64,000 nt of DNA from an uncultured Gammaproteobacteria bacterium (GCA_964355175.1 CAYHBZ010000001.1:174335-238334), one strand, 5' to 3'. Numbered from the stretch's first letter, positions 3,823 through 64,000 are shown. Numbers and translations: made by a program. Notes: generated by a model from the sequence alone, not told the origin.

Positions 3823-3861
3823 GAATATATTATAACATTTTTAGCAGAGAATGATAAGGGA

Positions 3862-4404: not shown

Positions 4405-4406
4405 AA

Positions 4407-4811: not shown

Positions 4812-4816
4812 ATATT

Positions 4817-33974: not shown

Positions 33975-35525
33975 TTAATATGTCAGCCAATCGTAAGATT
34001 TTGAGGTGTTTTTGTAGGTGGTTTGGGATACTATTTTTTTACCTTTTTTTACCTTTTTCACCATTTTTTGAGCAAAATTAATTTGAATTTTTCTGTCTTC
34101 TTGAGTGTTTACTACTGTAATCTTGGTTGGGACATTAGAAACTGAGTAATCTGAAACAGGTAAAGCCTTTTCCTGCCATTTGCGACCGGTGTCGGTAAAA
34201 AACTGTACAAAATAATGTTTACCACGCCTAACCAAAGCAAATACTTCATCGCGTTTACCATCAAATGACCGTGTAAACCCGATGGTCACAATTGGCGCCT
34301 CGGCAGTGCTGGCAAAAAAATACTTATCTCCATTTTCTATAGTATAGATGGTATTATCTTTAAAATAATACTGTCCCCAAGAAGCGTAGTTAATTGGAAA
34401 TTTTAAAGCAGATGAATTCGCCATTGCTTGACCAATATTCAAACGACCAAAACCCAATTTATTTTTAAATAATGGATTTTTATAATCGATTTTATCAGCA
34501 TTACTTAATAGAGCATTGATAATTTGTTTGGCCGACCAATCCGGATGGTCGGCTTTGAGCAAAGCGGCTGCACCCGCCACGAGCGGAGCGGCAAAGGAAG
34601 TGCCTTGCCAAGGACCGCCAAATTCGTCATTGTATCCATAGATCGGAGCATATCTTTGCAAACTAAAAATTTTTTGTCCAGGTGCCACAATATCCACACA
34701 CTGCCCATAATCGGCAAACGGACTAAGATTATCTTCCTTATCTACCGATGAAACCGACAAGATCCAATTTTCGAGATCGTTGGTATCAAAACAAGCTGGG
34801 TAATTAGGCTTGATATCCAAATTTCCGTCATAATTAAAATCTCGGTCATTTCCCGCGGCCGCCACTATCACCACTCCCTTTTTATAGGCTTCGTATAAAA
34901 CTTGTTTTAAACCACTATCGGACTCATTGCCAATAATACTCATACTTATCACATCAGCCCCATGATAAACGGCATACTGCACAGCTTTGGCTACTTTTAT
35001 ATAAGATCCATTACCATCACTATCTACTGCTCGAAGAGGCATTAAGCTTACTTTCCAATTCAAACCGGACGCACTTTTGTTATTGTTGCCCACCGCCCCC
35101 ACCAGTCCGGCAATAACCGTACCATGATTAATTGCTTCTGGATCACCCACATTATCGAGCACACTTGGACGTACTTGATTGTTATCTTCAATAAAATTCC
35201 AACCGTTCACATCATCTACATACCCATCACTATCATCATCGTAATTATTGTCCGGAATTTCATAAGGATTTATCCAAGCATTAGCCTGTAGGTCATCATG
35301 CCAAATATCAGCACCGGTATCGATAGTAGCTATCACCACCCGGCGGCTACCGGTATTAAAATCCCAGGCTCTGGGAGCCCCTATTTGCTCCCACATTATT
35401 TGTTGCTGAAGATAGGAAGGGTCATTTGGAGCCAAAGCTAGCACATTATCCGTCCAAAGGAAAAAAACAGCTAAAGTAGCTGCTAGGATTGATTTTTTGG
35501 CTAAATTATGATAGAATTCAAACAT
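33975..35525 (-). CDS. Secreted subtilisin-like serine peptidase (S8)
   Basis: Signal peptide. Catalytic triad motifs IDTGAD (Asp), HGTVIAG (His), GTSFAAPLVAG (Ser). Confidence 0.85.
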   Translation of the reverse strand: MFEFYHNLAKKSILAATLAVFFLWTDNVLALAPNDPSYLQQQIMWEQIGAPRAWDFNTGSRRVVIATIDTGADIWHDDLQANAWINPYEIPDNNYDDDSDGYVDDVNGWNFIEDNNQVRPSVLDNVGDPEAINHGTVIAGLVGAVGNNNKSASGLNWKVSLMPLRAVDSDGNGSYIKVAKAVQYAVYHGADVISMSIIGNESDSGLKQVLYEAYKKGVVIVAAAGNDRDFNYDGNLDIKPNYPACFDTNDLENWILSVSSVDKEDNLSPFADYGQCVDIVAPGQKIFSLQRYAPIYGYNDEFGGPWQGTSFAAPLVAGAAALLKADHPDWSAKQIINALLSNADKIDYKNPLFKNKLGFGRLNIGQAMANSSALKFPINYASWGQYYFKDNTIYTIENGDKYFFASTAEAPIVTIGFTRSFDGKRDEVFALVRRGKHYFVQFFTDTGRKWQEKALPVSDYSVSNVPTKITVVNTQEDRKIQINFAQKMVKKVKKGKKIVSQTTYKNTSKSYDWLTY

Positions 35526-47906: not shown

Positions 47907-50900
47907 TCAAAATGACTGTGAAAACCATCCTGGCGGACTCCAATAAGTATTAACGTTGATAAAATTACGGGTATCCATATTAGTCAGATTTAATTGTGGA
48001 AATGGATTAGCCGATCCGGCCATAATACCTTCGGTAAGATTGTAGAAGAAACTATTATCCACTGACAGTGCCCCGGTATTCACCTGGACTCCTTTTATAG
48101 TTGGGAAAAAAGTATTTTTAGAAGTATAACCAAGCGAAGTATTATTTAAATTAACTGTAGAACTATTTATTTGAATTATTTCTACCGGCAAACGATTGTC
48201 TATTAGCTGGCAATTTTCCAAAGTAACCTGCGAATTATTATTGACAGAAATTACACCCTTGTAACTATCTCCGGGAGAATTATAACCACCACCGGAAAAA
48301 TTGACTGAATTTAAATTTCCTACACCACCATCAAAAACTAAATGACCCCAATATTTATTTAAACCTGTCGGGCCTACAAATTTTATAGGCTCATCAACCG
48401 TGCCGTTTAAAGTGAGAGTACCTTTGATGAAAATATTAGAAAATTGTGGCAGATAAAAAGATGCCCCTTTGTCCGCTGCCAAACTACCTCCGGCTTCAAT
48501 AGTAACATTTTCCAAATTAATAGGGATACTAGTTCCCACAACGACTGAAGAAGTGATAGTCGCCATGGCGATATTTACCGCACCATTGGCACTATTGGAA
48601 AAACTAATAACATCAAGAAGGCGTGGCCAAATATTTTTAACGTAAATAGCGCCGGTAGGGTTAGAAAAATTATCTACTGTAATATTTTCTAAACTTAATT
48701 GTCCGCCGTAATGCTCGATAGCGGTAATGCCATTTTTAAAATTAGTACTATTAATAGAAGATTTGGAATTAATTTCATAAATAATTGTATCGCCGTCATC
48801 AACAAAATCTGAGCCACTAATATTTAAGCTAGCGCTATCGGCATATATTGCTTCAGAAACAGGCAGCTGTGATGAATTAAGATTCGGGGCGCGGAATTTG
48901 GCTCCGGCGTAACTCATTTCCAAACCCTTTAAATCCCCTTTTGATCCGGGATAAAACATCAATCCTTGCCAGGACTTGGACAATTTATTATCTGACGTCA
49001 TGATAACTTTTTGAGAGGGCGAACCAGAGGTATTTAAAGTGCCTTTGATCTCAATTTTTGAATTAGGATAATAGGCTTTTACAACAGCACCTTCTTCTAT
49101 GCTAAGAATTTTGCCGGCCGGCACTTCATAGTAAGTTAAGATATATGGATAATCACTCTTTTTCAGAGTGCGCTCGACATCTACCTGAGTCGCGCGTAAC
49201 ACAATTGATCCAAAATTAGATTGTTTTGGTGAACCATTTAAGGGTAAAGCATCGCCACCACCATCTACCTTACCGGCGAGGCGCGGACCCTGGTTGGTTT
49301 GCCAATTATTTGAAAGATTGCCAGATAAAGTAGAGTTAATCTTTTCCATGGATGAATATGTTGTCGCCGATCCGGCAAACCATCCGGCTGAAGAATTTAA
49401 TTCATCCACCAAATTATTTTGACTATCAAATAATTCCAGACGCGTTCCACTATTGGACAAACTGCCAGAATAAATAAGGTCGCCGTCAATTTCATTGACC
49501 GTACGATTATCAGGATTTTCCAGCAGGTAATAACCGTGCGCCGGTATGGTGGAATTATTTATTTTATTTATATTTATTTCTTGACCGGCAATTTTTAGTT
49601 TCCATCTTTTCTGAATGTTGGTAGTGGAAAATAATTCTATATCTTGATTAGTATTGTTATAAAGCTCAATATACTCATCTTCAGAAGTGAATTGTGAGGT
49701 GCCAGCCCAAGCGACTTCATTTATGACAACGTCAGGAACTACGACAGGCGCAGTTTCAACAGTGGAAGTGACAACTGTGGTAGTGTTGGATACAGTGGTA
49801 GTGACTACTTCGGTAGTGGAGGTGACAACAGTAGAGGTGGTAGAAGTAGTAAATGAATCTAAATTTTCTATCTGGTCTGGAATAGTGGATGTGCTGAAAA
49901 TAGTAGACGTAGTATCAATTTCAGGTTCGGTTGAAGTTGTGGAAGTTGGAGATATTATTAAATCTGATGGATCTGGAGTAGTCGAGGTTGAAGTGGTGGT
50001 AGAAGTGGTGGTATCTGGAACATCAGAATTCGTCGATGTGGTTGAGGTGTCACTAGAGGATGATTCACTGGTTGTGGTAGGAGCAGAGACATTACTGTCT
50101 TCGGTAGAGGTAGTGCTGACAGGAATAGTGACAGTAGGAAAAGCACTAGAAGTATTTTCTGAATTAGATAAATTTGTATTAACCACAGGGCTGGCCGAAC
50201 CACCACCTCCGCCACTTGTTGCTGGGAAGTTCGAGGTAGCACGAGGAGTAGTAATTATTTCATTGGTTGTTATAGGTCTGTCATTTGGCAATTCTGGCAC
50301 GAAACTGACAGGATTAGATTGGTCTGAATTTTTCAGTGTAGATGGGGTTTGGGAAGCAACATTCTGAGATATTGGAATTTTTTTATTTATACTCTTGCCG
50401 ATATTTTCTATCTTACTCACTATAGCATCGGTGGTTTTATTTAATGACTGCGTTACAGTTTGAGTCAGCACTCCACTGCTGGTATCGGCTTGAGACGCAT
50501 TACCTTTATAAATATTCTCAGCGACATTAATTACGGCACCACCGAGACTATTTACCAGACCACCAAGATTACTTCTAAAAAAAGGCAGTTTTTCTGTTTG
50601 ATTTTTCTGAGTTTCGTCGAGGAATAATTTTATGGTACCGGCGCTGTAGGCGACTGCTTTGGGGAGGAGGTGGTGAGCATAGTCGGACAACACAAGGTCC
50701 TCATTCAATATTTTATGATTACTTTTTTTCCAATCAGATCCGTCCGTTGCATAAAGACTAAAAAATTCTTGATCTATCTTACTCTGAATTAAAAACATCT
50801 TATCATATTTTGTTTTTATTTCTAACACCTTATCTACGCTGTTAATTTTATAATTTTTATCTTCAATAGTATCATCACTATAAAAATTATTATTAGAATA

Positions 50901-51503
50901 ATTAGCAGCTCCATCAAATATATTCTCTAATTTATCTTTATAAATTGGCTGAACATTTATATCCTTACTTATGGCATTCCAATTATTTTTAACATATTCT
51001 TCATATGAATCTGGCTTGGGCGCGTGAATATCATCACGAGTATGTGCTGGCACCAGTGCATCAGAAACCAAATGAATATTGTGGCCTAGCTTCTTAAATG
51101 CAGACTCCTGATCGCCGCTGCGATAATCGCTTATGGCTCTCTGCCAACTATTATCACCTTTGGAATAACTTTTTTGCTCTACCGGATCCTTGGCCCACAC
51201 TTTTGAACTTTCATGCTGAGTTATAAACCATAAACCGCGATTATATATAGGATCATAAAAATGATTAAGCCACCTAGTGGGGTTATCTTCTTCTACTGCC
51301 CCTTGTTTAATCCACTCATACTGCTCAACGGTAATTTTTTTGCTATTATTTTTATTATAAACTTTGACCGCCAGACCAGCTATTCCGGGATGGGCAATAT
51401 TGGTATCATAACAAAAAACCTGGTCAACAAAAACCAAGTTTAAAACAGCTCCTAAAGTAAATAGAAAAACAAAAAACAAAATTTTGCCCCCTCCCTTTTC
51501 CAT
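47907..51503 (-). CDS. Giant secreted protein: zinc-dependent phospholipase-C-like domain, Ser/Thr-rich linker, lamin-tail domain and C-terminal beta-helix-like repeats
   Basis: Signal peptide. NHFYDP and HLVSDALVPAHTRD match the Zn-PLC / S1-P1 nuclease signatures (HFYDP; HYxxDxxxPxH). Long T/S-rich tract (TTSTTTSTSTTPDPS...). LTD core VVINEVAWAGTSQFTSEDEYIELYNNT. C-terminal G/N-rich repeats. Confidence 0.7.
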   Translation of the reverse strand: MEKGGGKILFFVFLFTLGAVLNLVFVDQVFCYDTNIAHPGIAGLAVKVYNKNNSKKITVEQYEWIKQGAVEEDNPTRWLNHFYDPIYNRGLWFITQHESSKVWAKDPVEQKSYSKGDNSWQRAISDYRSGDQESAFKKLGHNIHLVSDALVPAHTRDDIHAPKPDSYEEYVKNNWNAISKDINVQPIYKDKLENIFDGAANYSNNNFYSDDTIEDKNYKINSVDKVLEIKTKYDKMFLIQSKIDQEFFSLYATDGSDWKKSNHKILNEDLVLSDYAHHLLPKAVAYSAGTIKLFLDETQKNQTEKLPFFRSNLGGLVNSLGGAVINVAENIYKGNASQADTSSGVLTQTVTQSLNKTTDAIVSKIENIGKSINKKIPISQNVASQTPSTLKNSDQSNPVSFVPELPNDRPITTNEIITTPRATSNFPATSGGGGGSASPVVNTNLSNSENTSSAFPTVTIPVSTTSTEDSNVSAPTTTSESSSSDTSTTSTNSDVPDTTTSTTTSTSTTPDPSDLIISPTSTTSTEPEIDTTSTIFSTSTIPDQIENLDSFTTSTTSTVVTSTTEVVTTTVSNTTTVVTSTVETAPVVVPDVVINEVAWAGTSQFTSEDEYIELYNNTNQDIELFSTTNIQKRWKLKIAGQEININKINNSTIPAHGYYLLENPDNRTVNEIDGDLIYSGSLSNSGTRLELFDSQNNLVDELNSSAGWFAGSATTYSSMEKINSTLSGNLSNNWQTNQGPRLAGKVDGGGDALPLNGSPKQSNFGSIVLRATQVDVERTLKKSDYPYILTYYEVPAGKILSIEEGAVVKAYYPNSKIEIKGTLNTSGSPSQKVIMTSDNKLSKSWQGLMFYPGSKGDLKGLEMSYAGAKFRAPNLNSSQLPVSEAIYADSASLNISGSDFVDDGDTIIYEINSKSSINSTNFKNGITAIEHYGGQLSLENITVDNFSNPTGAIYVKNIWPRLLDVISFSNSANGAVNIAMATITSSVVVGTSIPINLENVTIEAGGSLAADKGASFYLPQFSNIFIKGTLTLNGTVDEPIKFVGPTGLNKYWGHLVFDGGVGNLNSVNFSGGGYNSPGDSYKGVISVNNNSQVTLENCQLIDNRLPVEIIQINSSTVNLNNTSLGYTSKNTFFPTIKGVQVNTGALSVDNSFFYNLTEGIMAGSANPFPQLNLTNMDTRNFINVNTYWSPPGWFSQSF

Positions 51504-52241: not shown

Positions 52242-53159
52242 TTATTCAATGTTCCAGGCATCTTTGAGCTGTCTAATACCATCTTCCAATTTTATAGTCG
52301 GTTGCCATCCAAGCAATTCTTTTGCTTTGATAATATCAGCTTCAAAGTAGCGCCCATCACCCGCTCGTGGGGGCACAAACACACTTTCCCCACCAATTAA
52401 TTTTACCAGATCATTTACCGAATGAGGATTGTTGTTACCAATATTTATGGTCTCACCATGGCCAACTTTATCTCCCTGCATGGCCAAAATATTAGCCCTA
52501 ACCACATCGCTGACATGCGTATAATCGCGATAATATTCACCATCACCACACACGGTCATTGGTTCGTTATTCTTTTTTTGTTTTAAAAATTTACCTACGA
52601 CCAAAGCATAAGCGCCATCTGGATCAAAATATGGTCCGTACACATTAAAATAAATCAAGCTCACGGTTTGTAATCCAAATAATTCGGAAAAAATACGACA
52701 ATAATGTTCGCCAATAAACTTATGTAAAGCGTACGGACTGATAGGGTTTTTTATCACTTCATCTTCCTTGAAAGCTTCGTGTTTTTCCTGAGAACCATAA
52801 GTAGAAGAAGACGAAGAAAAAACTATACGCTTTACTTTATTTCTCACGGCTGCCATTAATACCTGTAAAGTACCGTTAACATTTACATCGTGAGTAAGCT
52901 CCGGATTCTCTACTGAAAAACTCACACGCGGTAAAGCGGCCATATGAAAAATACCTTCGACACCAATACAAGCTTTATCCAAATCAGCCGCATTACGAAT
53001 ATCTCCTTCAATATATTGAGCTCCAGATTGGATTCTTTCTTCTTTTTTACCGCCAGCATAATTATCCAGCACGACCACCTCATGACCTTCGTTCAAAAGT
53101 TGCTTGGTCAAGTTGGTACCAATAAATCCCGCGCCTCCGGTAATTAAATATTTTGACAT
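52242..53159 (-). CDS. NAD-dependent epimerase/dehydratase (UDP-hexose/UDP-HexNAc(A) 4-epimerase-like)
   Basis: ITGGAGFIGTNL, catalytic S...YxxxK (SPYALHK), extended SDR length. Confidence 0.8.
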   Translation of the reverse strand: MSKYLITGGAGFIGTNLTKQLLNEGHEVVVLDNYAGGKKEERIQSGAQYIEGDIRNAADLDKACIGVEGIFHMAALPRVSFSVENPELTHDVNVNGTLQVLMAAVRNKVKRIVFSSSSSTYGSQEKHEAFKEDEVIKNPISPYALHKFIGEHYCRIFSELFGLQTVSLIYFNVYGPYFDPDGAYALVVGKFLKQKKNNEPMTVCGDGEYYRDYTHVSDVVRANILAMQGDKVGHGETINIGNNNPHSVNDLVKLIGGESVFVPPRAGDGRYFEADIIKAKELLGWQPTIKLEDGIRQLKDAWNIE

Positions 53160-53163
53160 ACTA

Positions 53164-54462
53164 TTATAGAGTCCAATAGTTAAATCCTTGTGAAATTATT
53201 TCACCTTTGTTTAAAATATTTTTAATGTCCACCACCAAACCGCCTGGCTTCAAAAAATTATTTATATCTTTTAAATCATCCTTAAAATTATCGTGTGCTA
53301 CTACAACAAATAAAATATCCGCCAACCCCAAATCTTCTTTTTTACTTAATTTTAAATTATATTCATGTTGCACTTCATCTTCATAAGCCAAGGGGTCGTA
53401 TACCTGTACTTGCGCGCCTCTATTTTTTAATTCTTTTAAAATATCTACGGCTTTGGAATTTCTGGAATCCGGCACATTTTCTTTAAAGGTGATTCCAAAT
53501 AACGAAACCTGCAGACTATTTAATGTTTTATTTTCTTTATTCAATTTTCTTTCCACTTCATCTACTACAAATTTTGCCATACTGTCATTAATTTGTCTAC
53601 CGGATAAAATTACCTTTGAATCATAGCCGATCTGTTGAGCTTTGTATGTAAGATAATATGGATCCACTCCAATACAATGTCCGCCTACCAACCCAGGAGT
53701 AAATTTTAAAAAATTCCATTTAGTGCCAGCGGCTTCTAACACATCGTAGGTGCTGATATCCAACTTGCTGAAAATAACGGCCAATTCATTCATTAAAGCG
53801 ATATTTACATCGCGCTGAGTATTTTCAATCACTTTGGCGGCTTCCGCCACTTTTATGGATTTCGCTTTAAAAACCTGCGTTATGGATGAATAAACACCAG
53901 CTACCACTTCCAAAGCCGCTTCGTCAGAAGCGGAAACTATTTTTACCACTCGATTTATAGTATGTTCCTTATCACCCGGATTAATTCTTTCGGGGGAATA
54001 GGCTAATTTGAAGTCATCTCCAAATTTCAAACCAGATTCTTTTTCTAAAATAGGCAGACAGATATCCTCAGTAACTCCCGGATATACGGTAGATTCATAA
54101 GCCACAATACTGTCTTTGGCTAAATTTTTACCTACCATTTCTGTAGCCTTTTCAATCAAAAACAGATCCGGCAAATTATTGGCATCAACCGGGGTCGGAA
54201 CAGCAACAATAATAAATTTACAATCTTTAATATCTTGTGGTTCAAAAGTATACCTCAAAGAAGAACTCAATAATTTTTCTTTTTCCACTTCTTTGGTGCG
54301 ATCAAAACCGCTTTTCAATTCCTCGATTCTATCCTTTTTGATATCAAAACCCAAAACAAAAAAATGTTTGGCCAGCTCTACCGCTAAGGGCAATCCCACA
54401 TAGCCTAAACCAACTACACAGATTTTTTCTTGTTTATTTTTTAAAGACTCGATAGATACCAT
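53164..54462 (-). CDS. Nucleotide-sugar dehydrogenase of the UDP-GlcNAc/UDP-ManNAc 6-dehydrogenase type (TviB/WbpA/WecC-like)
   Basis: CVVGLGYVGLPLA N-terminus, SPERINPGD motif, catalytic GGHCIGVDP. Confidence 0.75.
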   Translation of the reverse strand: MVSIESLKNKQEKICVVGLGYVGLPLAVELAKHFFVLGFDIKKDRIEELKSGFDRTKEVEKEKLLSSSLRYTFEPQDIKDCKFIIVAVPTPVDANNLPDLFLIEKATEMVGKNLAKDSIVAYESTVYPGVTEDICLPILEKESGLKFGDDFKLAYSPERINPGDKEHTINRVVKIVSASDEAALEVVAGVYSSITQVFKAKSIKVAEAAKVIENTQRDVNIALMNELAVIFSKLDISTYDVLEAAGTKWNFLKFTPGLVGGHCIGVDPYYLTYKAQQIGYDSKVILSGRQINDSMAKFVVDEVERKLNKENKTLNSLQVSLFGITFKENVPDSRNSKAVDILKELKNRGAQVQVYDPLAYEDEVQHEYNLKLSKKEDLGLADILFVVVAHDNFKDDLKDINNFLKPGGLVVDIKNILNKGEIISQGFNYWTL

Positions 54463-54463
54463 A

Positions 54464-55852
54464 TTATTTATTACCTTTCATAAAAGGACTACCCACAGCA
54501 ATAATATTAAAACCGTTTTTCTGTAAATCTTCATAGCGATGCTGTAACATGCGGCGACCGTCCATTATTAATGGCTTGTTCTTTTTTTCTGATATTAACA
54601 TATCGGCCAATCCGCGAAACTGCGGCCAATCGGTAGCAATTATTACCACATCCACACCTGTAGTGGCTTCAAATTCATGACTAAAATATTTTATAATACC
54701 TTTTTCTGGAAAATCGTGTTTAAAATTAGCACTGGCCGAAGGATCATATAGACGCACTTCATTCACAGATTTTTCCAATAAAAACTTAACTATCTCGATA
54801 CTTGGTGAATTACGAGTATCGTTGGTATCGCGCTTAAAAGCCAACCCCAAAATAGCTACTTTTTTACCAGCCCAGTCAAATTGAGAATCTTTTTCGGCTC
54901 TGGCTAAAAATAACTCCAACTGACGTTTATTGGATAAATAAGTTTCATCCACCATGGCGGCATTTACTCCGGAAGTTTGCAATTGATGAGAAAGAGAACG
55001 GGCGTCTTTTATAAAACAACTGCCGCCGGAATACAAACTATTATAAAATCCCCACTCTCCAATACGATTATCAGTAGTCAAAATTTTTCTAATATTTTCA
55101 AACTTTAAATCACTAAAAGTTTCACAGGTACGGCCAATCACATCAAAACAAACTGTCAATTTATTAAATAAGTAAAAATTGGCCAATAATTTTCCAGCCG
55201 CGGCCTCTTTGGGATTTACTTCAATATACTGAACGGTCGGCGCATCATAGAAACGCTGATAGATCTGACGCATTATTGCAAACTCTTTGGCTTCCCACGC
55301 TCCTACTACCACTCTGTCCGGACGCATCGAACCTTGAATCGCCTTGCCCTCTACCAAAAATTCAGGATTGGAGACTACTCCATAGTTCTCTACTCCTTCT
55401 TTGTCCATAATTTGCTTGGTTCTGTCTACCATATCTATAGGCACAGTGCTCTTATTTACAATCACGATATAATTTTTTTGACTGCCTTCATTTCTTTTAA
55501 CCAATATTTGAGCCAAATCTTTGGCGGCGTTAAAATAATAACTTAGATCGCTCTCACCGGTTTCACCAATTTCCGGCGTTGGCAAGCACATAAATACGGC
55601 TTGCGCCTGCTCTAAAAACTCTTCCATTTTGGCTTTATCTGTGGTAAAATTGATTCGTTGTTTGTTACGAATTAAAAGATCGCCTAACCCTTCTTCAAAG
55701 AGGCAGGACTCGATAGTTTCGCGGTCTTCAGAACCGATCATTTTTATTCTACTAACATCAATATCATACACTAACACATCATGTCCACTAGCAGCAGAAA
55801 CCGCAGCTGAACATGCTCCCACAAAACCGGCACCAATATATAGAATCTTCAT
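54464..55852 (-). CDS. UDP-glucose 6-dehydrogenase family
   Basis: ILYIGAGFVG, NPEFLVEGKAI, catalytic GGSCFIKD; 462 aa. Confidence 0.8.
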   Translation of the reverse strand: MKILYIGAGFVGACSAAVSAASGHDVLVYDIDVSRIKMIGSEDRETIESCLFEEGLGDLLIRNKQRINFTTDKAKMEEFLEQAQAVFMCLPTPEIGETGESDLSYYFNAAKDLAQILVKRNEGSQKNYIVIVNKSTVPIDMVDRTKQIMDKEGVENYGVVSNPEFLVEGKAIQGSMRPDRVVVGAWEAKEFAIMRQIYQRFYDAPTVQYIEVNPKEAAAGKLLANFYLFNKLTVCFDVIGRTCETFSDLKFENIRKILTTDNRIGEWGFYNSLYSGGSCFIKDARSLSHQLQTSGVNAAMVDETYLSNKRQLELFLARAEKDSQFDWAGKKVAILGLAFKRDTNDTRNSPSIEIVKFLLEKSVNEVRLYDPSASANFKHDFPEKGIIKYFSHEFEATTGVDVVIIATDWPQFRGLADMLISEKKNKPLIMDGRRMLQHRYEDLQKNGFNIIAVGSPFMKGNK

Positions 55853-55921: not shown

Positions 55922-57046
55922 ATGAACAAAAATATATTGATTATCGTAACCAAAGGAGATACCGGCGGCGCTCAACAGTCGGTGTTTAATCTCTCTAAAG
56001 GCCTAAAGGACAGCGGTCAAAGGGTAACAGTCGGCTTTGGCGAAGGTGATTTTTTAAAAAATAAACTACAGGCTGAAAATATTCCATTTCATCAGTTTGA
56101 ATATTTAAAAAGAACAAAAAACCCTTTCATTAACCTTCTCTTTATTTGGGAAATGAAAAAATACCTAGAAAAAAATCGATTTACTACCGTTCATTTTAAC
56201 AGCTCCAACGCCTTACTCGGCGCTATTGGCGCTAAACTAACAAAAGACAGACCAAAAACCGTCTTTACCTTTAGAGGCTTATCTTTGATAGATAAAAATT
56301 ATACTTCCAAATTTTTATACAAATCACTATTTTATCTATACTTTAAAATATTACTGAATTTCGTGGACAGCCAAATTTATGTAAGTAGAGAAAACCAAAA
56401 ATACTGCCAAAAAATTGGTCTAGCCAAGAACGATTCAACGATTTACAATGGCCTGCCGACTTTAAAATTTCTTACAAAGGAAACCGCCCGTCAATACCTT
56501 TCCAAAATTTCTGAGCAGGATTTATCCAGTGATTTTATTATCGGCTCAGTCGGACGTCTGGCCTATCAAAAAAATTATGAATTTTTGATTGAAGCTGCAC
56601 TAGAAATTATAAAAACCAATCCTGCTGTAAAAATAGTAATCATCGGCGAAGGTACGGAAAGAAAAAAATACAACGAATTGATTAAAAGTCTTGGCCTTGA
56701 AAATAAAATACTGCTAATTGGCGACCAACCTGATGCTTACCGATTTTTAAAGGCCTTTGACCTATTTGTTCTCACTTCTCGATACGAAGGCATGTCTATA
56801 ACCTTAATCGAAGCGATGCAAGCCGGTCTACCAATATTAACTACCGACGTAGGTGGGGCCAAAGAAATGTTAAATAACGAACAGATGATTTATGAGCTTG
56901 ATAATAAACCAGAATTTTTGGATAAATTAAATATTTTAACACTAAATCAACCGACGCGGGAGGCGGCTTCCTTACAGACTAAAACCGAATCACAAAAATT
57001 TTATATCAAAAATACTGTCGACTCTTATTTAAAAATATATCAATAA
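55922..57046 (+). CDS. GT4-family glycosyltransferase
   Basis: GT-B layout with the C-terminal SRYEGMSITLIEAMQAGLPILTTDVGG E-x7-E region. Confidence 0.85.
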   Translation: MNKNILIIVTKGDTGGAQQSVFNLSKGLKDSGQRVTVGFGEGDFLKNKLQAENIPFHQFEYLKRTKNPFINLLFIWEMKKYLEKNRFTTVHFNSSNALLGAIGAKLTKDRPKTVFTFRGLSLIDKNYTSKFLYKSLFYLYFKILLNFVDSQIYVSRENQKYCQKIGLAKNDSTIYNGLPTLKFLTKETARQYLSKISEQDLSSDFIIGSVGRLAYQKNYEFLIEAALEIIKTNPAVKIVIIGEGTERKKYNELIKSLGLENKILLIGDQPDAYRFLKAFDLFVLTSRYEGMSITLIEAMQAGLPILTTDVGGAKEMLNNEQMIYELDNKPEFLDKLNILTLNQPTREAASLQTKTESQKFYIKNTVDSYLKIYQ

Positions 57047-57048
57047 AT

Positions 57049-58908
57049 ATGTGCGGGATTGCTGGAAAATTATATTTTAAACAAAATCGCGGCATAGCCA
57101 AAGAAGAAATTCGCGCAATGACTGACGCGATACACCATCGCGGGCCAGATGACACCGGAATTTTTATTGACCAAAATCTAGGATTAGGACACTGCCGTTT
57201 ATCAATTATTGATCTATCCAGCGCCGGACACCAGCCTATGGGTTCGAGTGACGAAAAAACTTGGATTACTTTTAACGGCGAGATATATAACTTTTTGGAT
57301 CTAAAAAAAGAACTCGAAGCGGACGGTATCCAATTCCACTCCAATACTGATACGGAAATCATAATTTACTTATACCGTAAATACGGAGTTGATTGTCTAA
57401 AAAAATTACGCGGCATGTTTGCTTTTGCTATTTGGGACAAAGATAAAAGAGAATTATTTGTGGCCCGCGACCGAGTGGGTAAAAAACCGATAAAATACTA
57501 CTACGACAAAAACATATTTATATTTGCTTCTGAATTAAAAGCGATTTTAAAAAATAAAGAAGTCAAAAAAGAAATTGACTATTCGGCGATCGATCAATAC
57601 CTTACTTTTGGCTATGTCCCAACACCAAAAACCGGTTATAAAAATATTTATAAATTAGAACCGGCCAACTACATGATAGTAAACGAATCCGGCAAAGTTA
57701 TCAAAAAACAGTATTGGGATATAGATTTTTCACAAAAATTAAACCTGGATGAGACGGAATGGGAAAATAAAATTTTAAATAAACTTCAAGAATCAATAAA
57801 AATAAGACTGATGGCCGATGTGCCGCTGGGGGCTCATTTGTCTGGCGGCGTTGATTCTAGTTTGATAGTAGCCTTGATGTCTGAACAAATGTCACAAAGG
57901 GTGAAAACATTTTCGATTGGCTTTGAAGAAAAGAGTTACGACGAAACAAAATATGCCCGTCTGGTAGCTAAAAAATATAATACTGAACACACAGAGGTAT
58001 TTATCAAACCAGATGTCGCCACAATAATTCCTGCACTTGCCAATCAATACGAAGAACCATTTGCTGACAATTCTGCTTTGCCCACCTGGTATCTATGCCA
58101 AGCGACCAAACAAAAATTGACTGTGGCGCTAAATGGGGACGGTGGTGATGAAAATTTCGCCGGCTACAAACGCTACGAAATGATGAAATTTTATAATGCT
58201 CTAAAATATTTACCAGCAAAAAATATCAACGGCAAAATTTCGGAAATAATTTATAAGACTACCGGCATAAAAAATTTCTTACGCCTGAAACAGGTGCTGA
58301 TAAATCTAAATTTAGATCCTATAAATTTTTATACCAATAATACCGCTCATTTTAGCGACGAAGATAAAATTGTTTTATACAGTGATGATTTTAAAAAAAA
58401 TATTGGCCAGCACGAAATGCCTTATAAAAAAATATTCGAACAAACAACAAAATTAGAATGGTTGGATAAATTTTTATATTTAGGGATAAAATCCCACCTA
58501 CCAGATGACCTTATACCAAAAGTAGACATTTCCTCTATGGCGTTTGGCTTGGAAATCCGCTCCCCATTACTTGATCATGAATTAATGGAACTGGCCGCGC
58601 AGATGCCAAGCGCGTTAAAAATCAAAGGCTTAAACAAAAAATACTTGCTCAAAAAAATTGCCTATAAATACCTACCAAAAGAATGTATCGACAGACCAAA
58701 GCAAGGATTTGATGCCCCACTTGAATTTTGGTTTAAAAACAACTTAAAAAATTTCTTCTTGGAATCTAATATAATAAACGAACTGGTTCAAATAGGACTA
58801 AACAAAAAATATCTTGAAGACATAATTGACGATAATTCATCAAAGATGTTCAACCATTCTAAAAAGATTTGGAATTTGATAATGTTGGCTAATTGGTTAA
58901 AAATATGA
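57049..58908 (+). CDS. asnB: Asparagine synthase (glutamine-hydrolysing), polysaccharide-locus type (WbpS-like amidotransferase)
   Basis: MCGIAG N-terminal nucleophile, PP-loop SGGVDSS, and overall AsnB length. Confidence 0.9.
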   Translation: MCGIAGKLYFKQNRGIAKEEIRAMTDAIHHRGPDDTGIFIDQNLGLGHCRLSIIDLSSAGHQPMGSSDEKTWITFNGEIYNFLDLKKELEADGIQFHSNTDTEIIIYLYRKYGVDCLKKLRGMFAFAIWDKDKRELFVARDRVGKKPIKYYYDKNIFIFASELKAILKNKEVKKEIDYSAIDQYLTFGYVPTPKTGYKNIYKLEPANYMIVNESGKVIKKQYWDIDFSQKLNLDETEWENKILNKLQESIKIRLMADVPLGAHLSGGVDSSLIVALMSEQMSQRVKTFSIGFEEKSYDETKYARLVAKKYNTEHTEVFIKPDVATIIPALANQYEEPFADNSALPTWYLCQATKQKLTVALNGDGGDENFAGYKRYEMMKFYNALKYLPAKNINGKISEIIYKTTGIKNFLRLKQVLINLNLDPINFYTNNTAHFSDEDKIVLYSDDFKKNIGQHEMPYKKIFEQTTKLEWLDKFLYLGIKSHLPDDLIPKVDISSMAFGLEIRSPLLDHELMELAAQMPSALKIKGLNKKYLLKKIAYKYLPKECIDRPKQGFDAPLEFWFKNNLKNFFLESNIINELVQIGLNKKYLEDIIDDNSSKMFNHSKKIWNLIMLANWLKI

Positions 58909-60179
58909 TAAAAAAAATAAAAGATACTATATATAGGGCACTGAAGTGGTCGGAAAAATATACTAAGACCGACATGAAATACCTGGCGCGAGGAGGATTC
59001 TGGCTAACGGCTTCTCAATTTATGACTAGCACAAGCGCCTTTGTTTTATCACTAGCCTTTACAAATTTAATTTCGCCTGAAAAATACGGCTTATATAAAT
59101 ACATCCTTTCCTTAGGAGCATTATTTGGAGCATTTACACTAACCGGGTTAGACCTAGCTTTAATCCGAGCTTCATCATCAAAAGGATTGAAAATTTTAAA
59201 GTCAGCCTTCAAATTGAATTACAAATGGAGCATACCTTTCATACTTGGAATGATTTCGTTGAGCGTATACTATTTTTTTCAAAGAAACTACACTATCGCT
59301 TCAGCTATTTTATTAATTGCATTATTTCAACCATTACAAGACAGCTCCTTTGTATATGATTCAATTTTAAGAGGATTGAAAGATTTTAAAAATAGCGCTA
59401 GATACTCTGCGATTAAAACTTTCGCTATAACATTATTATTGTTCTTAACATTATTGATTACCAAAAATATTTCAATTATAATATTGATATATTATGCTGG
59501 CGGCAGTCTGATCACATATCTATTTTATGTGATTTTAAACAAAAAAAATGCACAAAATATAGAAGAGAAAGAGGTGGACGCTAGCACAATTAAACTTAGC
59601 AAACATTTGAGTTTATTAAATCTAGCAAATATATTAATTGAACAAATTGACAAGGTTGTTGTTTTCCATTTTTTTGGTGCCGTCCAACTAGCCACATACA
59701 GCTTAGCGATTGCATTACCAGGACAAATAACAACTCTACTTAAAAAAATACCGGAATTAGCATTACCAAAATTTAGCACGAAAACGACAAAGGAAGTAGG
59801 CGAATCTTTTTTTAAACATAGCAAAACAATAATATTTTTTATGATTCCGGTTGTAATAATTTATATAATAGCCTCTCCATTTTTATTTAAACTTCTTTTC
59901 CCGCAATATATTGGTGCCATATTTCTCTCTCAAATTTATGCCCCGATACTTTTAGTATCAGGCAACTTATTAACACCAGCTCTCACCGCCAACCAGGCAA
60001 TAAGAGAGCAATACTTTCTAAGTATCGTTTCTTCAATAATTCGATTAGTATTGCTTTCTTCTCTTACTTATTTTTTTGGGATAATCGGTCTAATTTTATC
60101 CCGAGTAATCACAAAATACATATCCTACTTCTTGGGACTATGGCTAATAAATAAAAAAGTAGAAAGAGCCGCTGATTAA
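58893..60179 (+). CDS. Polysaccharide/O-unit flippase (Wzx, MOP superfamily)
   Basis: ~12 TM helices and a Wzx-like N-terminus (ARGGFWLTASQFMTSTSAFVLSLAF). Confidence 0.7.
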   Translation: MVKNMIKKIKDTIYRALKWSEKYTKTDMKYLARGGFWLTASQFMTSTSAFVLSLAFTNLISPEKYGLYKYILSLGALFGAFTLTGLDLALIRASSSKGLKILKSAFKLNYKWSIPFILGMISLSVYYFFQRNYTIASAILLIALFQPLQDSSFVYDSILRGLKDFKNSARYSAIKTFAITLLLFLTLLITKNISIIILIYYAGGSLITYLFYVILNKKNAQNIEEKEVDASTIKLSKHLSLLNLANILIEQIDKVVVFHFFGAVQLATYSLAIALPGQITTLLKKIPELALPKFSTKTTKEVGESFFKHSKTIIFFMIPVVIIYIIASPFLFKLLFPQYIGAIFLSQIYAPILLVSGNLLTPALTANQAIREQYFLSIVSSIIRLVLLSSLTYFFGIIGLILSRVITKYISYFLGLWLINKKVERAAD

Positions 60180-60913
60180 TGGTTATTCAATTTAATATAA
60201 ATTAAAATTCCTTGAGAAAATAGCTTAGGGAAAACCTTATTTAGGATTGGCAAACCTTCATAAAGAACCATCTTTTCAATTTCAAGATCCATGGACTGAA
60301 CCCAAAAATTCATATCTGTCACTGTCCAAAAACGCAAATGTTCGGCTGGATGCACAACCCACTGGAGAGGAAAGCGCCCAAATAACAAACGCAAACGGTG
60401 AGCATAATAACCGCTATTAGGGACCGACATTATCAAGCCATAGCGCGCTTTCTTGCGAATATTATAAAGAAATGTCTCCGAGTTGGCCATATGTTCAATA
60501 ATTTCAAATGCAGTAATATAATCTACCTCTGGCAAAAGATTATAATTATTGAGATTATTTGCATCGGTACAAACAACATTTATACCAAGATTCTGTGCTG
60601 TATCAAAGATCTTATCATCTATATCTATTCCAACTACCGGACCCATACCTCTTTCTTTTAGATACTCTAATAACGCGCTGTCACCGTATCCAATATCCAA
60701 AATAGAAGATCCCGGCTTAATTATTTTCAAGGCAATGTCGGCTCTCTGTTTTTGCCAAGAGCTTAAAACCTGATGTCCACCCCCTCTTCTACGAAGCCAA
60801 TACTTCTCATAATCAACAGAAAATTCATTTCCATAATCACATTTTGGATAACCAGATATCTGTTTAAAATCTCGATGCAATATCCCTAAAAAATTTTTGA
60901 CTGTTTTTAGCAT
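60176..60913 (-). CDS. Class I SAM-dependent methyltransferase (MetW-like)
   Basis: ILDIGYGDSALLEYLKERG motif I and MetW-like overall pattern. Confidence 0.6.
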   Translation of the reverse strand: MLKTVKNFLGILHRDFKQISGYPKCDYGNEFSVDYEKYWLRRRGGGHQVLSSWQKQRADIALKIIKPGSSILDIGYGDSALLEYLKERGMGPVVGIDIDDKIFDTAQNLGINVVCTDANNLNNYNLLPEVDYITAFEIIEHMANSETFLYNIRKKARYGLIMSVPNSGYYAHRLRLLFGRFPLQWVVHPAEHLRFWTVTDMNFWVQSMDLEIEKMVLYEGLPILNKVFPKLFSQGILIYIKLNNH

Positions 60914-62511
60914 AATATTCTATCAAATAATAAATTTATGTCAGGGGTGACCGGCCAAACAATATCTTTTTTGGAACTATATTTTTTTAGAGCGGCCAGC
61001 AACTTCTCCTCGCTGAAATCTTTTTCCAATTGAATAGCTAGATTATCATCTTTTAAGTAGTGCCCCAAATCAAACGAGCTCTGGATCTGTATTATTGGTA
61101 TTTCATAATAAATCATTTCGCTTAAAAATGTACTATATTCACCCATGATCGCATCGATTTTCTCTAATACCCCAGAATTTATATTATCTACCACTGTTAT
61201 ATTATCAACTGGAGAAAACCCATAGTCGTTCAGCTGTTTTTCTTTGCTAATATCTGGTCTAATTTTAAAAAATAAATTAATTCCCATTTTTAGTAATCGT
61301 CTCACATATTTCTTATTTTCATCGCCAGACAATGCTATCTCATATGGAATAAGGATATTTAGATCGCCGACCGACGTTGGAATCGGCCTTCTAATATAAC
61401 TAATTTGCGGCAATCGACGTAACCAACCTCCGACAGATACGTTATCTGCACCATACTGTGTACTGAAATTTAATAAAATTTTTTTCCAATAATCATTCCA
61501 AACAAATAATTTATCAAAAGTTACTGATCCTTTTTTTGACAACCCATAATTCATCCACCCTACGTGATATTTAGTATATTGTCCATGTTGAAGCCCAAAT
61601 GATTTTACTCCATTTTTATGGCAGGCTATAATCAATTCGTTAGTATAACGCACATCATCTAAAGCCACCAGAGTTTTTAAACTGGAATTCCTAATAATCC
61701 AATCCAATTTTTTAAACAAATTAAAACTTATAGAAATTCTCTTGGCTATATTTTTTACTAGACTTCTAAAAAAAATTTTTACATATAGCTCTTCGGTTAT
61801 ATCTAGGTCTACTTCACCAATCTTTATCGGAGATACAAACCATGAAAAAGAGTCCAAATAAATTACAGTTTTTTTTCTTTTTATTAAATTTAATAAAAAA
61901 TTTTTTCCTAAATCAGTATGCATCACCTCTATAAAATCTTTTTGTTTATCCCTTAAATAACTATAGAGCGGATATATTCTAAAATCACAACCTAAACTAG
62001 AAAGTATATCGGGGCTATAAACTATGATTGGTACTTTCTTTAAAAATAATTTAATTACTGCCAATAACGAAATGATCATGGCTAAAAACTTGGTGCCAGT
62101 GAATATAAAATATCGAAAAAAATTAGCGACCATGGATCGACCTTCAATTAAAACCACTTCTCCGGCAAAAATATTTTCAATAATTCTGTTCAAATCAGCA
62201 CTAGCTTTTTGAATAATTAACCTATCAAATTTGGCATTATTTAAATATTTTATTAATTCTTCGTATTTTGAAAAATATCGAAAGAACGACCAAAATAATA
62301 TTTCTTGATTAAATGACCACGCCTCATATCCTTCAATTTTAAAAATTTTAGACAGGTAATTACCATCCTTAGTTTTTAATTCATTGAATTTTTTTAAAAG
62401 AGTTAACGCTCTAGGAAGATCATCCTTTGTATTAAATTCCGCCACTACTTTATTTTCAGCACTCATTACTACAACAACGCCTTCTCTTTCATTTATTGAA
62501 TAGGCGCTCAT
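60907..62511 (-). CDS. Hypothetical 534-aa protein, possibly a capsule/surface-carbohydrate biosynthesis glycosyl- or ulosonic-acid transferase
   Basis: No canonical GT2/GT4 motifs. One internal hydrophobic helix. Co-oriented and overlapping with the KdsB-like gene. Function inferred only from context. Confidence 0.3.
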   Translation of the reverse strand: MSAYSINEREGVVVVMSAENKVVAEFNTKDDLPRALTLLKKFNELKTKDGNYLSKIFKIEGYEAWSFNQEILFWSFFRYFSKYEELIKYLNNAKFDRLIIQKASADLNRIIENIFAGEVVLIEGRSMVANFFRYFIFTGTKFLAMIISLLAVIKLFLKKVPIIVYSPDILSSLGCDFRIYPLYSYLRDKQKDFIEVMHTDLGKNFLLNLIKRKKTVIYLDSFSWFVSPIKIGEVDLDITEELYVKIFFRSLVKNIAKRISISFNLFKKLDWIIRNSSLKTLVALDDVRYTNELIIACHKNGVKSFGLQHGQYTKYHVGWMNYGLSKKGSVTFDKLFVWNDYWKKILLNFSTQYGADNVSVGGWLRRLPQISYIRRPIPTSVGDLNILIPYEIALSGDENKKYVRRLLKMGINLFFKIRPDISKEKQLNDYGFSPVDNITVVDNINSGVLEKIDAIMGEYSTFLSEMIYYEIPIIQIQSSFDLGHYLKDDNLAIQLEKDFSEEKLLAALKKYSSKKDIVWPVTPDINLLFDRILC

Positions 62512-63281
62512 ATGTTTAAATAGCTCGGCAACAAATCATCAGTTGACAAAAAATTTTCCACTATATCGAAATCTTTTTGATTATCTACGCTATATAAATG
62601 AACGTCAGAATTTAAAATATTAATTTTTTGTCCATGTTCGATTAATCTGAACATGTCTACTGAATTGGCTTTTTCCAACGGGGTAGATTCAAATTGAATA
62701 TATTGTTTTAAATTTTCTAAACGAAAACCAATAATTCCTGTCTGTATATATATCGGCAAGCTGTGAATATTTTTTTCCAAAAATGGATCGGGTAAACGAA
62801 AAAACCAAATTGCTTGACTATTATTATTAGTAATAATTTTTACAGTGTCTTTGTCGTGGTATACATCCTCATTGGTGATATTATTTATAACATTCAATAC
62901 TCCAACGGAAGAATCAATTTCAAAAATATCTACCATTTTATCTAAAACTTCAGGACGCACAGTTGGTTCATCACCTTGTATCATTATGACAGCGTCCACT
63001 TTTTTTCCTTGTATGGATTCGATCTTCATGATTGCCTCGGCAACCCTCTCGGTAGGTCTTTCGTGCACATTGCTAGTCATTATAGCTTTACCGCCAATTG
63101 AAATAATATAATCAAAGATCTCTTTGTCACATGTTGCTACATATAAATCGTCAATTTTTTTAGATTTTTGACTGCGATAATAAACGTGACCAACCATTGG
63201 TATGCCGTGAATTTTTTTTAATGGTTTTCCAGGAAAACGCGAAGCCCCCATTCTTGCTGGAATAATTCCGACAATATACAT
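62508..63281 (-). CDS. CMP-sugar synthetase of the KdsB family (3-deoxy-manno-octulosonate cytidylyltransferase-like)
   Basis: IIPARMGASRFPGKPL, GTER-like PTERVAEA, QGDEPTV, and the C-terminal VDT-like region all align by eye with E. coli KdsB. Confidence 0.75.
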   Translation of the reverse strand: MYIVGIIPARMGASRFPGKPLKKIHGIPMVGHVYYRSQKSKKIDDLYVATCDKEIFDYIISIGGKAIMTSNVHERPTERVAEAIMKIESIQGKKVDAVIMIQGDEPTVRPEVLDKMVDIFEIDSSVGVLNVINNITNEDVYHDKDTVKIITNNNSQAIWFFRLPDPFLEKNIHSLPIYIQTGIIGFRLENLKQYIQFESTPLEKANSVDMFRLIEHGQKINILNSDVHLYSVDNQKDFDIVENFLSTDDLLPSYLNI

Positions 63282-63292
63282 ATAAGAATTTA

Positions 63293-64000
63293 TTAATTAC
63301 CAAATAAATTTAACAAAAATTCCTCAGTATCTTCCCAACTCAAACAGGGATCTGTTATGGATAAACCGGACATGTCCATTGAGGACGTTATTTCCTGTTT
63401 TCCTCCCTTCAGAAAACTTTCTAACATAAAACCACGAACAATTTCTCTAGCGATAGGATTGCTTTTACGAAATTCAACTATTTGACTAACCACCTCAATC
63501 TGTCTTCTTACATCCTTTACTCCATTTACCAAACAATTATCGTGACTAGCATCTATAACTATGGCTGAATTATTTATCAAATTTTTTTTCATTAATTCTT
63601 GAGCCTTTAAAATATTTTCTATACCAAAATTTGGACCAGTATAATTACCTCCCCTCAACACTAAATGTGTGTAATGGTTACCACTAGTAATAACCTGATA
63701 ACCACCAAATATAGTTGTATGTGAGTTCTGAGCTGCTATCACACTATTAACGCCTATCTCAATAGATCCGCTCGTAGGATTTTTCATACCCACAGGACAA
63801 TCAACCGATGATGCGTATATTCTATGTTCTTGGTCTTCAGAACTACGGGCTCCAATAGCCATCCATGATAAAAGATTAGGGAAAAATTTCATACTATCAT
63901 GGGTAAACAGCGCCTCATTTGCAATCGGCAAACCAATTTTCAGAACATCTAACATTAGAGATCTGGTATAGCGAATCCCATCCGCTACATCAGGTTCATC
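63293..64000 (-). CDS. Class I-alpha (AroG-type) 3-deoxy-7-phosphoheptulonate (DAHP) synthase-family enzyme; partial, N-terminus beyond the window
   Basis: IGARSSEDQEHRIYASSVDCPVGMKNPTSG aligns with AroG [48 protein letters not shown] and GLSITDPCLSWEDTEEF align with AroG ILRGG, IDFSHAN, VMVESHL and GKSITDACIGWEDTD. The reading frame stays open upstream of M63955 to the window edge. Confidence 0.75.
   Translation of the reverse strand, partial: DEPDVADGIRYTRSLMLDVLKIGLPIANEALFTHDSMKFFPNLLSWMAIGARSSEDQEHRIYASSVDCPVGMKNPTSGSIEIGVNSVIAAQNSHTTIFGGYQVITSGNHYTHLVLRGGNYTGPNFGIENILKAQELMKKNLINNSAIVIDASHDNCLVNGVKDVRRQIEVVSQIVEFRKSNPIAREIVRGFMLESFLKGGKQEITSSMDMSGLSITDPCLSWEDTEEFLLNLFGN

Follow-up and report, generated by a model that had tools for sequence, protein, structure and literature searches.

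Why is a synthase of the kind known from aromatic amino-acid biosynthesis encoded beside a sugar-activating cytidylyltransferase among the genes of a glycan locus? The question is raised by the right end of a 64,000-nucleotide (nt) stretch of DNA deposited under an uncultured Gammaproteobacteria bacterium (GCA_964355175.1, CAYHBZ010000001.1:174335-238334), which as a whole is called the window below. Four open reading frames (ORFs), all co-oriented on the minus strand, occupy this end and belong to a cassette that includes a class I-alpha synthase (DAHPS) of DAH7P, the 7-phosphate of 3-deoxy-D-arabino-heptulosonate. Lengths are in amino acids (aa), CMP is cytidine monophosphate and GT is glycosyltransferase:

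63293..64000, minus strand: 3' two-thirds of a class I-alpha DAHPS gene (C-terminal 235 of 342 aa), open to the window edge; PF00793, TIGR00034
62508..63281, minus strand: KdsB/KpsU-like cytidylyltransferase of 257 aa, a predicted CMP-ulosonate synthetase; PF02348 (E=1e-35), NF003952
60907..62511, minus strand: 534-aa protein of an unannotated family with a GT-B core in the predicted structure, a candidate CMP-ulosonate:glycan transferase
60176..60913, minus strand: MetW-like class I S-adenosylmethionine (SAM) methyltransferase of 245 aa, the final gene of the cassette; PF07021 (E=8e-14), PF13489 (E=1e-11)

[quoted passage not shown] A preliminary description of the window had read the edge gene as AroG-type and not KdsA-type, and had pointed to the co-oriented KdsB-like gene 11 nt away, to the overlapping 534-aa protein of no recognised family with a methyltransferase behind it, to the polysaccharide genes around them and to the absence of shikimate genes nearby. 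All of these readings are borne out by the data given below. Its central proposal, that an AroG-fold enzyme was recruited to supply a CMP-activated 3-deoxy-ulosonate for a surface glycan, has gained support from an upstream phosphatase-like gene, from the conservation of the cassette, from a separate synthase clade, from the GT-B fold of the 534-aa protein and from a Patescibacterium host.

The synthase and the conserved cassette

The 235-residue fragment of the synthase encoded in the window matches PF00793 (E=3e-28) and reaches 174.2 bits on the TIGR00034 (aroFGH) model, the cutoff of which is 173.2. The complete protein of 342 aa was recovered from L001 and L002, two short contigs that share the exact cytidylyltransferase sequence and are 100% identical to the window in the overlap (ORF at L001 469-1497), and it matches the same model over its full length with 296.4 bits. 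The closest solved relatives are AroG/AroF of N. meningitidis and E. coli (E about 1e-62), and the enzyme falls outside the KdsA branch, as every NCBIfam match is a DAHPS model and the KPRT motif is present. In AroG numbering, the synthase keeps the metal ligands C61, H268, E302 and D326 as well as R92, K97-P98-R99-T100, G163-A164-R165, K186 and R234, the residues for phosphoenolpyruvate (PEP) and erythrose-4-phosphate (E4P). All 12 members of the clade described next share these residues, except for T100S in two of them. Since the catalytic, PEP and E4P-phosphate residues are all retained, the chemistry would be unchanged and the product is probably DAH7P, as in AroG.

In a neighbour-joining tree of 122 sequences, the cassette-linked synthases and P0019-P0024 form one clade of their own with 12 leaves and a bootstrap of 97/100. 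Unique to the clade is the insertion of one residue, seen in the window protein as D142-S143-M144. Together with P148 and Y169, it falls at AroG positions 149-154 and 175, in a region that forms the phenylalanine feedback site in AroG. These clade-specific changes would fit altered regulation and are offered as a lead only.

The neighbourhoods of related synthases were sorted for the best 80 loci in GTDB species genomes. The cassette is present in 2 of the 80, both with 62% identical synthases, the best match of the scan. Most of the others, at 57% identity or less, hold operons of the aroA-aroK-aroQ-aroE-DAHPS-aroB-aroC-pheA type and belong to Kaiserbacteria, Peribacteria, Gracilibacteria and a range of further metagenome-assembled genomes (MAGs), and about a third of the loci are without a recognised neighbour, mainly ~40%-identical enzymes of Clostridia type. 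Full aro operons enclose the synthases P0039 and P0047, the latter from a Magasanikbacteria MAG, and P0025, 59% identical, lies within a trp+aro operon. A percent-identity threshold dividing glycan-type from shikimate-type synthases was rejected because of P0025; only clade membership and the M144 insertion divide the two. None of the cassette loci contains aro genes, and no shikimate gene was detected in the 64-kb window by tblastn with AroA/B/C/E/K/Q/PheA/CM queries from the candidate phyla radiation (CPR) or by Pfam scans. The enzyme is probably a specialised paralogue that branched off from the shikimate-operon DAHP synthases of related Patescibacteria.

Directly upstream of the synthase gene, beyond the window edge, L001 and L002 carry a gene for a hydrolase of the haloacid dehalogenase (HAD) family, the stop codon of which overlaps the synthase start by 11 nt. 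Generic HAD-IA-type models match this protein best (TIGR02253, E=1e-9). On the HAD-SF-IIIA model, the subfamily of KdsC, it scores 20.9 bits, under the cutoff of 44.6, and it is KdsC-like by position only. HAD phosphatases free the ulosonate in the Kdo route (KdsC) and in the 9-phosphate (9-P) routes to 2-keto-3-deoxynononic acid (Kdn) and N-acetylneuraminic acid (Neu5Ac). Homologues of the HAD protein occur only beside cassette synthases, and never in the shikimate loci examined or in four loci (L003, L005, L095 and L100) with an HpcH/HpaI aldolase, whose product would carry no phosphate. Such a distribution, with DAHPS cassettes and not with the aldolase, would be expected if the HAD protein took the phosphate off DAH7P ahead of its activation with CMP.

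Four other Patescibacteria loci have HAD, DAHPS, cytidylyltransferase and 534-aa homologue genes in this order and in the same orientation, namely L004 (GCA_040961635.1), L006 = L009 (Patescibacteria JAHJGG01), L007 = L010 (Magasanikbacteria GCA_030650025.1) and L090 (a metagenome contig). Identity to the window proteins in these loci is 59-63% for the synthase, 47-60% for the cytidylyltransferase and 37-47% for the 534-aa protein. As the four loci are so diverged, the arrangement of the cassette has outlived substantial divergence. In the cassette loci, a MetW-like methyltransferase gene separates the cytidylyltransferase gene from the 534-aa gene or comes right after the latter, and its orthologues, 51-65% identical, flank the 534-aa gene in L004, L006, L007, L090 and L095. 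Three or four more co-locations of clade members with cytidylyltransferase or 534-aa homologues (P0023/P0289, P0024/P0291, P0424/P0287 and P0423/P0004) are suggested, circumstantially, by agreement in the length of their longest contigs.

The genes of the cassette are tightly packed in the window. Read from the sequence, 11 nt separate the DAHPS stop codon from the ATG of the cytidylyltransferase gene, the stop of the latter and the start of the 534-aa gene overlap by 4 nt (ATGA), and the 534-aa and methyltransferase genes share 7 nt. KdsA and KdsD are absent from the window and from the cassette loci.

Other DAHPS genes stand in settings of different kinds. A Saccharibacteria DAHPS, sister to the glycan clade in the neighbour-joining tree, has as its neighbours two unknown proteins, a SLOG/LOG-like one, a HAD hydrolase and a kinase of PfkB-like type (L038 4628-10474); there are no aro genes nearby, and the locus may represent another non-aromatic use of DAHPS. 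The orphan DAHPS genes of L012, L036 and L044 have unrelated neighbours. On contigs labelled as Neisseria, Neisseriaceae or Burkholderiales MAGs (L013, L015-L019, L021, L025-L028, L030-L031, L033 and L040), a DAHPS 54-57% identical to the CPR enzyme is found in an aroB-DAHPS-pheA-CM-aroC arrangement. The solved N. meningitidis DAH7PS is a far weaker match (E about 1e-62), and the taxonomic label or horizontal transfer may be at issue for these contigs.

The cytidylyltransferase and the 534-aa protein family

The cytidylyltransferase matches PF02348 with 123.7 bits (cutoff 22.6) and NF003952 with 223.5 bits (cutoff 193), and it stays under the cutoffs of the kdsB equivalog models TIGR00466 (126.6 against 155.2), NF003948 (158 against 281) and NF009905 (238 against 255). 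Among solved structures, KpsU (1GQ9, E=1e-33), a CMP-Kdo synthetase of capsule synthesis, is its top relative. In an alignment with E. coli KdsB, R10, R15, K19, the Asp of QGDEP and the Asp of the C-terminal VD(T/N) motif are conserved. For KdsB, the roles of the three basic residues and of the two Asp residues that bind Mg, one in QGDEP and one in the C-terminal VDT, are known (PMC3149649). A WFFR(L/Q)P segment is present in five of five cassette cytidylyltransferases, as WFFRLP in the window, where E. coli KdsB has LYFSRATIP and most of the aldolase-type loci LYFSRExIP. The equivalent segment lies in the C-terminal half of KdsB, which has been assigned to Kdo binding (PMC3149649).

LepA and DnaB of the window cluster at 90% identity with proteins from Candidatus Magasanikbacteria MAGs. 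By its protein sequences, the host is a Patescibacterium of Magasanikbacteria-like affiliation, with a genome of about 1 Mb. To our knowledge, Patescibacteria have neither an outer membrane nor lipopolysaccharide (LPS). A housekeeping KdsB of LPS synthesis is unlikely here, because the host belongs to a group without LPS.

Neither Pfam nor NCBIfam gave a match for the 534-aa protein. An AlphaFold2 model built from 18 homologues (predicted local distance difference test score, pLDDT, 90; predicted template modelling score, pTM, 0.88) shows an alpha/beta domain at the N-terminus (residues 1 to ~121), then a long hydrophobic helix and a two-Rossmann GT-B core with a cleft; its fold was compared against PDB structures only. 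The helix (Kyte-Doolittle peak 2.16, residues 135-160) is conserved in close homologues and suggests membrane association. A word-indexed search for homologues gave 17 matches, the named ones all from Patescibacteria, and a profile search of 1.84 billion cluster representatives extended the family to 1,315 clusters at E<=1e-3 and 378 at E<=1e-30.

A Pfam scan of 95 sampled family members gave essentially no coverage of the domain, with a single marginal match to PF04464 (E=0.0075) and one weak match to PF13439, the N-domain of GT4 enzymes. The family has no sequence or profile match to Epimerase_2. Positions conserved in at least 90% of the sampled members are D176, R178, D285, Q308-H309-G310, W338, W342, E391, K416, R418, D420, Q426 and G457, with D285 and W342 invariant. 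In the model, most of the conserved residues sit after the ends of beta-strands. GT-B enzymes typically place their substrate-binding residues at such sites.

Natural fusions connect the family to sugar activation and transfer. P0261 (L112 520-3587, 700 aa) joins a domain of the 534-aa family to a CTP_transf_3 cytidylyltransferase and is encoded near a KpsF-like SIS+CBS isomerase, a 2-oxoglutarate (2OG)-Fe(II) oxygenase, a methyltransferase, an AsnB-like amidotransferase and a Wzx flippase, and P0161, from an Elusimicrobia MAG, joins such a domain to a GT4 domain. Where the flanks were long enough to judge, 13 loci have a KdsB-like gene in the vicinity of the 534-aa family. In view of the GT-B fold, the fusions and the KdsB-like neighbours, the user of the CMP-sugar is best sought in this family, and we predict it to be a transferase. 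The preliminary description had named the protein as the obvious candidate transferase and had proposed a comparison with KpsC/KpsS (PF05159) and WaaA. The candidacy stands. A relation to KpsC/KpsS was not detected, with no Pfam match to PF05159 in the window protein or in the 95 members and an hhalign probability of 0.1% against the PF05159 protein of L007; against a genuine PF04464 protein the value was 2%.

The predicted pathway and competing explanations

In the pathway that we propose, the synthase would condense PEP with E4P to DAH7P, given its retained AroG catalytic, PEP and E4P-phosphate residues. The HAD protein would remove the 7-phosphate to yield 3-deoxy-D-arabino-heptulosonate (DAH), as KdsC and the phosphatases of the Kdn-9-P and Neu5Ac-9-P routes do in their pathways and in view of its strict co-occurrence with the synthase. 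DAH would then be converted to CMP-DAH by the cytidylyltransferase, which possesses homology to KdsB/KpsU and intact catalytic residues. The 534-aa protein, as a putative membrane-associated GT-B enzyme, would take the sugar off CMP and add it to a glycan that is lipid-linked or still growing, which is suggested by its fold, its neighbourhood and the cytidylyltransferase fusion. The methyltransferase and possibly the AsnB-like amidotransferase encoded nearby might decorate the sugar or the glycan, and the Wzx flippase might export the unit.

The logic of this scheme is shared with the Kdo pathway (KdsD, KdsA, KdsC, KdsB and WaaA or KpsS/KpsC), which also combines a PEP-dependent aldolase of the PF00793 superfamily, a HAD phosphatase, a PF02348 cytidylyltransferase and a GT-B transferase. 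The cassette differs in that its synthase is of the AroG branch with the E4P motif and not KdsA, for which reason we predict a C7 and not a C8 sugar; its phosphatase is HAD family IA-like and not KdsC/IIIA; an arabinose-5-phosphate isomerase is lacking; the transferase candidate is unrelated in sequence to GT30 and PF05159; and the host is from a group without LPS. With AroG/AroF/AroH, the cassette synthase shares the family by every sequence test, but its gene partners are those for a phosphatase, a CMP-transferase and a GT-B enzyme instead of aroB or other aro genes. The Kdn and sialic-acid pathways (bacterial NeuB/NeuA among them) share the scheme of the cassette, from PEP and a phospho-sugar to a phospho-ulosonate, a HAD phosphatase and a CMP synthetase, but their synthases are of the NeuB fold (PF03102) and the sugars made have nine carbons. 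L007 encodes a separate NeuB and cytidylyltransferase pair alongside the cassette. Surface-glycan building blocks of the Kdn/sialic type are known only in CMP-activated form (bioRxiv 10.64898/2026.04.20.719630). No similarity of sequence or profile could be detected between the 534-aa protein and the CMP-releasing GT-B enzymes WaaA (GT30), polysialyltransferase (GT38) and TagF/TarL, and the protein differs from enzymes of these types by an extra N-terminal domain of ~120 aa and the hydrophobic helix. In sum, the cassette follows the Kdo and Kdn/sialic logic and has its synthase superfamily and cytidylyltransferase family in common with the Kdo route; it differs by the AroG-type synthase, the predicted C7 sugar, the non-KdsC phosphatase and a transferase candidate outside the described families. 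A link to Dha (3-deoxy-D-lyxo-heptulosaric acid) was rejected by stereochemical reasoning, as lyxo matches Kdo and not arabino-DAH.

Several points weigh against the proposed pathway. Every member of it is known from genes alone and the product is entirely predicted. In open-access full text we found no report of DAH in glycans, of CMP-DAH or of a DAHPS-cytidylyltransferase cassette. The synthase is not separable by sequence from its aromatic paralogues, which score 293-302 bits on TIGR00034 against its 296. Because these scores overlap, it could also, or instead, feed a shikimate pathway encoded elsewhere on the 953,736-bp contig to which these genes belong. The HAD ORF of this genome is N-terminally incomplete in L001/L002. 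The WFFR(L/Q)P segment was considered as a specificity marker and rejected, since the aldolase-type locus L095 also has the WFFR form; the segment correlates with the cassette and is not diagnostic of it. As for the 534-aa protein, the fold matches of its model are generic, with a UDP-GlcNAc 2-epimerase and not a transferase at the top, and it has no profile link to KpsC/KpsS (PF05159), TagF-like proteins (PF04464) or any PDB sequence. Nothing relevant was found on KdsB in CPR bacteria in open-access full text, and a 2026 untargeted survey of microbial nucleotide sugars makes no mention of heptulosonates (bioRxiv 10.64898/2026.04.20.719630).

One rival explanation is that a housekeeping DAHP synthase serves ordinary aromatic metabolism and has come to lie among glycan genes by historical accident. 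The enzyme is indeed a canonical aroFGH-type protein, with 296 bits on TIGR00034 like the shikimate-operon paralogues, and the shikimate pathway is present in some CPR lineages. Against an accident stands the order HAD-DAHPS-cytidylyltransferase-534-aa, whose overlapping or near-abutting genes have stayed together across divergence to ~60% and ~40% identity. The synthase also falls into a separate clade, whereas the aromatic DAHPS of related lineages sits inside an aro operon, and there are no aro genes in the 64-kb window. We regard an ordinary aromatic role as very improbable. Somewhat less remote, and in our view still quite unlikely, is a product other than a C7 sugar, such as CMP-Kdo itself. 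Here an AroG-type synthase would have shifted to a substrate such as arabinose-5-phosphate in place of KdsA, and a true CMP-Kdo synthetase would feed a capsule-like polymer. The cytidylyltransferase is closest to KpsU/KdsB, its relatives are called CMP-Kdo synthetases in public annotation, distant members of the 534-aa family lie beside KpsF-like arabinose-5-phosphate isomerases (L112, L097), and E. coli DAHPS weakly accepts five-carbon phospho-sugars. A shift of substrate is, however, at odds with the KPR(T/S) E4P-phosphate motif and all the other AroG substrate residues, which are kept with no KdsA-like change of the KANRS type. Loci of the Kdo type have an arabinose-5-phosphate isomerase, but no SIS/KdsD-type isomerase is found in any DAHPS cassette. 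The cytidylyltransferase, moreover, stays under the kdsB equivalog cutoffs and carries WFFRLP instead of LYFSRATIP in the half assigned to Kdo binding (PMC3149649).

A further explanation concerns the last step and is compatible with the rest of the pathway. The CMP-ulosonate would be made as proposed, the 534-aa protein would be a modifier of nucleotide sugars (a WecB/NeuC-like epimerase or hydrolase) or a TagF-like phosphotransferase, and a neighbouring GT2 or GT4 enzyme would attach the sugar. An Epimerase_2 match, however, is missing from the family, and PF04464 appears only marginally, once in 95 members and at an hhalign probability of 2%. The conserved hydrophobic helix, the fusions to a GT4 domain and to a cytidylyltransferase and the weak PF13439 match also argue for a transferase, and the GT2 and GT4 families of the locus are not known to use CMP-ulosonates. 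We hold a non-transferase role of the 534-aa protein to be unlikely.

Beyond the pathway for a CMP-activated C7 ulosonate lies a wider proposal, which we put forward tentatively. CMP-DAH, or a methylated or amidated form of it, may be a real new nucleotide sugar, the first C7 CMP-ulosonate, made in Patescibacteria by a neofunctionalised shikimate enzyme. The 534-aa protein may found a large GT family (~1,300 clusters, no Pfam model) for CMP-3-deoxy-2-ulosonic acids that come from at least three types of synthase, namely DAHPS, the HpcH/HpaI aldolase and the Kdo type.

If true, the proposal would extend bacterial glycobiology by one building block and one sugar nucleotide, both new. It would present a case in which an enzyme of primary metabolism was duplicated and rewired to a surface glycan with almost no change in the active site, and it would provide a function for a large unannotated GT-B family that accompanies KdsB-like genes in many uncultured lineages. 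For Patescibacteria, whose life is spent attached to host cells, surface glycans likely matter for that attachment. Annotation would also call for caution, as the labels "3-deoxy-7-phosphoheptulonate synthase" and "CMP-Kdo synthetase" would falsely imply aromatic amino-acid synthesis and LPS in such genomes. The five enzymes are small, and their expression and in vitro testing would not require a culture of the organism.

Surrounding genes and variant loci

The cassette meets a plus-strand operon of glycan genes head-on, its convergent neighbours being:

58893..60179, plus strand: Wzx-like polysaccharide flippase; PF13440, PF01943
57049..58908, plus strand: AsnB-like glutamine amidotransferase; PF00733 (E=5e-90), and TIGR03108 with 635 bits, under its cutoff
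55922..57046, plus strand: GT4 glycosyltransferase of the same glycan locus; PF00534 (E=2e-34), PF13439

The 3' ends of the flippase and methyltransferase genes converge with an overlap of 4 nt. According to Pfam scans, the glycan locus extends over ~35 kb, back to about position 29,300, and includes GT2 and GT4 enzymes, a Bac_transf priming transferase, dTDP-sugar enzymes and a nucleotidyltransferase. Three minus-strand genes at 52242-55852, read by eye only, resemble an NAD-dependent sugar epimerase and two enzymes of the UDP-glucose/GDP-mannose dehydrogenase family. A lamin-tail-domain protein of 1,198 aa (47907-51503) and a subtilase of 516 aa (33975-35525), within or bordering the locus, may be surface proteins. 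The left part of the window is housekeeping DNA with genes for DnaB, ClpB, MurJ, LepA, RecJ and RodA, and just before dnaB a TraG/VirD4-like type IV coupling protein (724 aa) adjoins a 708-aa protein without a Pfam match (1648-6943). No tRNA or Rfam RNA was found in the window.

Relatives of the flanking genes accompany the 534-aa family elsewhere. Flippase homologues lie beside it in L095, L096 and L112, and an AsnB-like amidotransferase is a recurrent neighbour (L003 12422-14302, L006 592-2466, L095 10263-15267 and L112 5228-7075). Some sugar acids of O-antigens and flagellins are amidated. The AsnB-like enzyme may amidate the ulosonate carboxylate and is a putative member of the pathway.

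In L003 (2407-11602), L005 (2-4904), L095 (2-10255) and L100 (1864-8741), an HpcH/HpaI pyruvate aldolase gene replaces the DAHPS and HAD genes beside relatives of the 534-aa and KdsB-like genes. The other neighbours vary and include a SIS protein, a GFO/Idh/MocA oxidoreductase, a 2-hydroxyacid dehydrogenase and a B12-radical-SAM enzyme; L095 also encodes an MBOAT protein and a genuine TagF-like protein. These loci look like a second, phosphate-free route to another CMP-ulosonate.

Additional genes are found around the DAHPS cassettes themselves. In L007 (14842-20338) the cassette is followed by genes for a PF05159 Capsule_synth protein (KpsC/KpsS-like), a dehydratase, an aminotransferase, a second CTP_transf_3 protein and NeuB, which suggests two different ulosonic-acid pathways in a single glycan locus. 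A second cytidylyltransferase gene occurs in L004 and L006 together with GFO, DegT and acetyltransferase genes. Pairs of a B12-binding radical-SAM enzyme and a MetW-like methyltransferase are encoded directly upstream of HAD-DAHPS in L004 (26-6423), L006 (3900-9192) and L090 (3287-5165), and such a pair lies upstream of the cytidylyltransferase in L091 (1504-3418). The pairs hint at C-methylation of the sugar.

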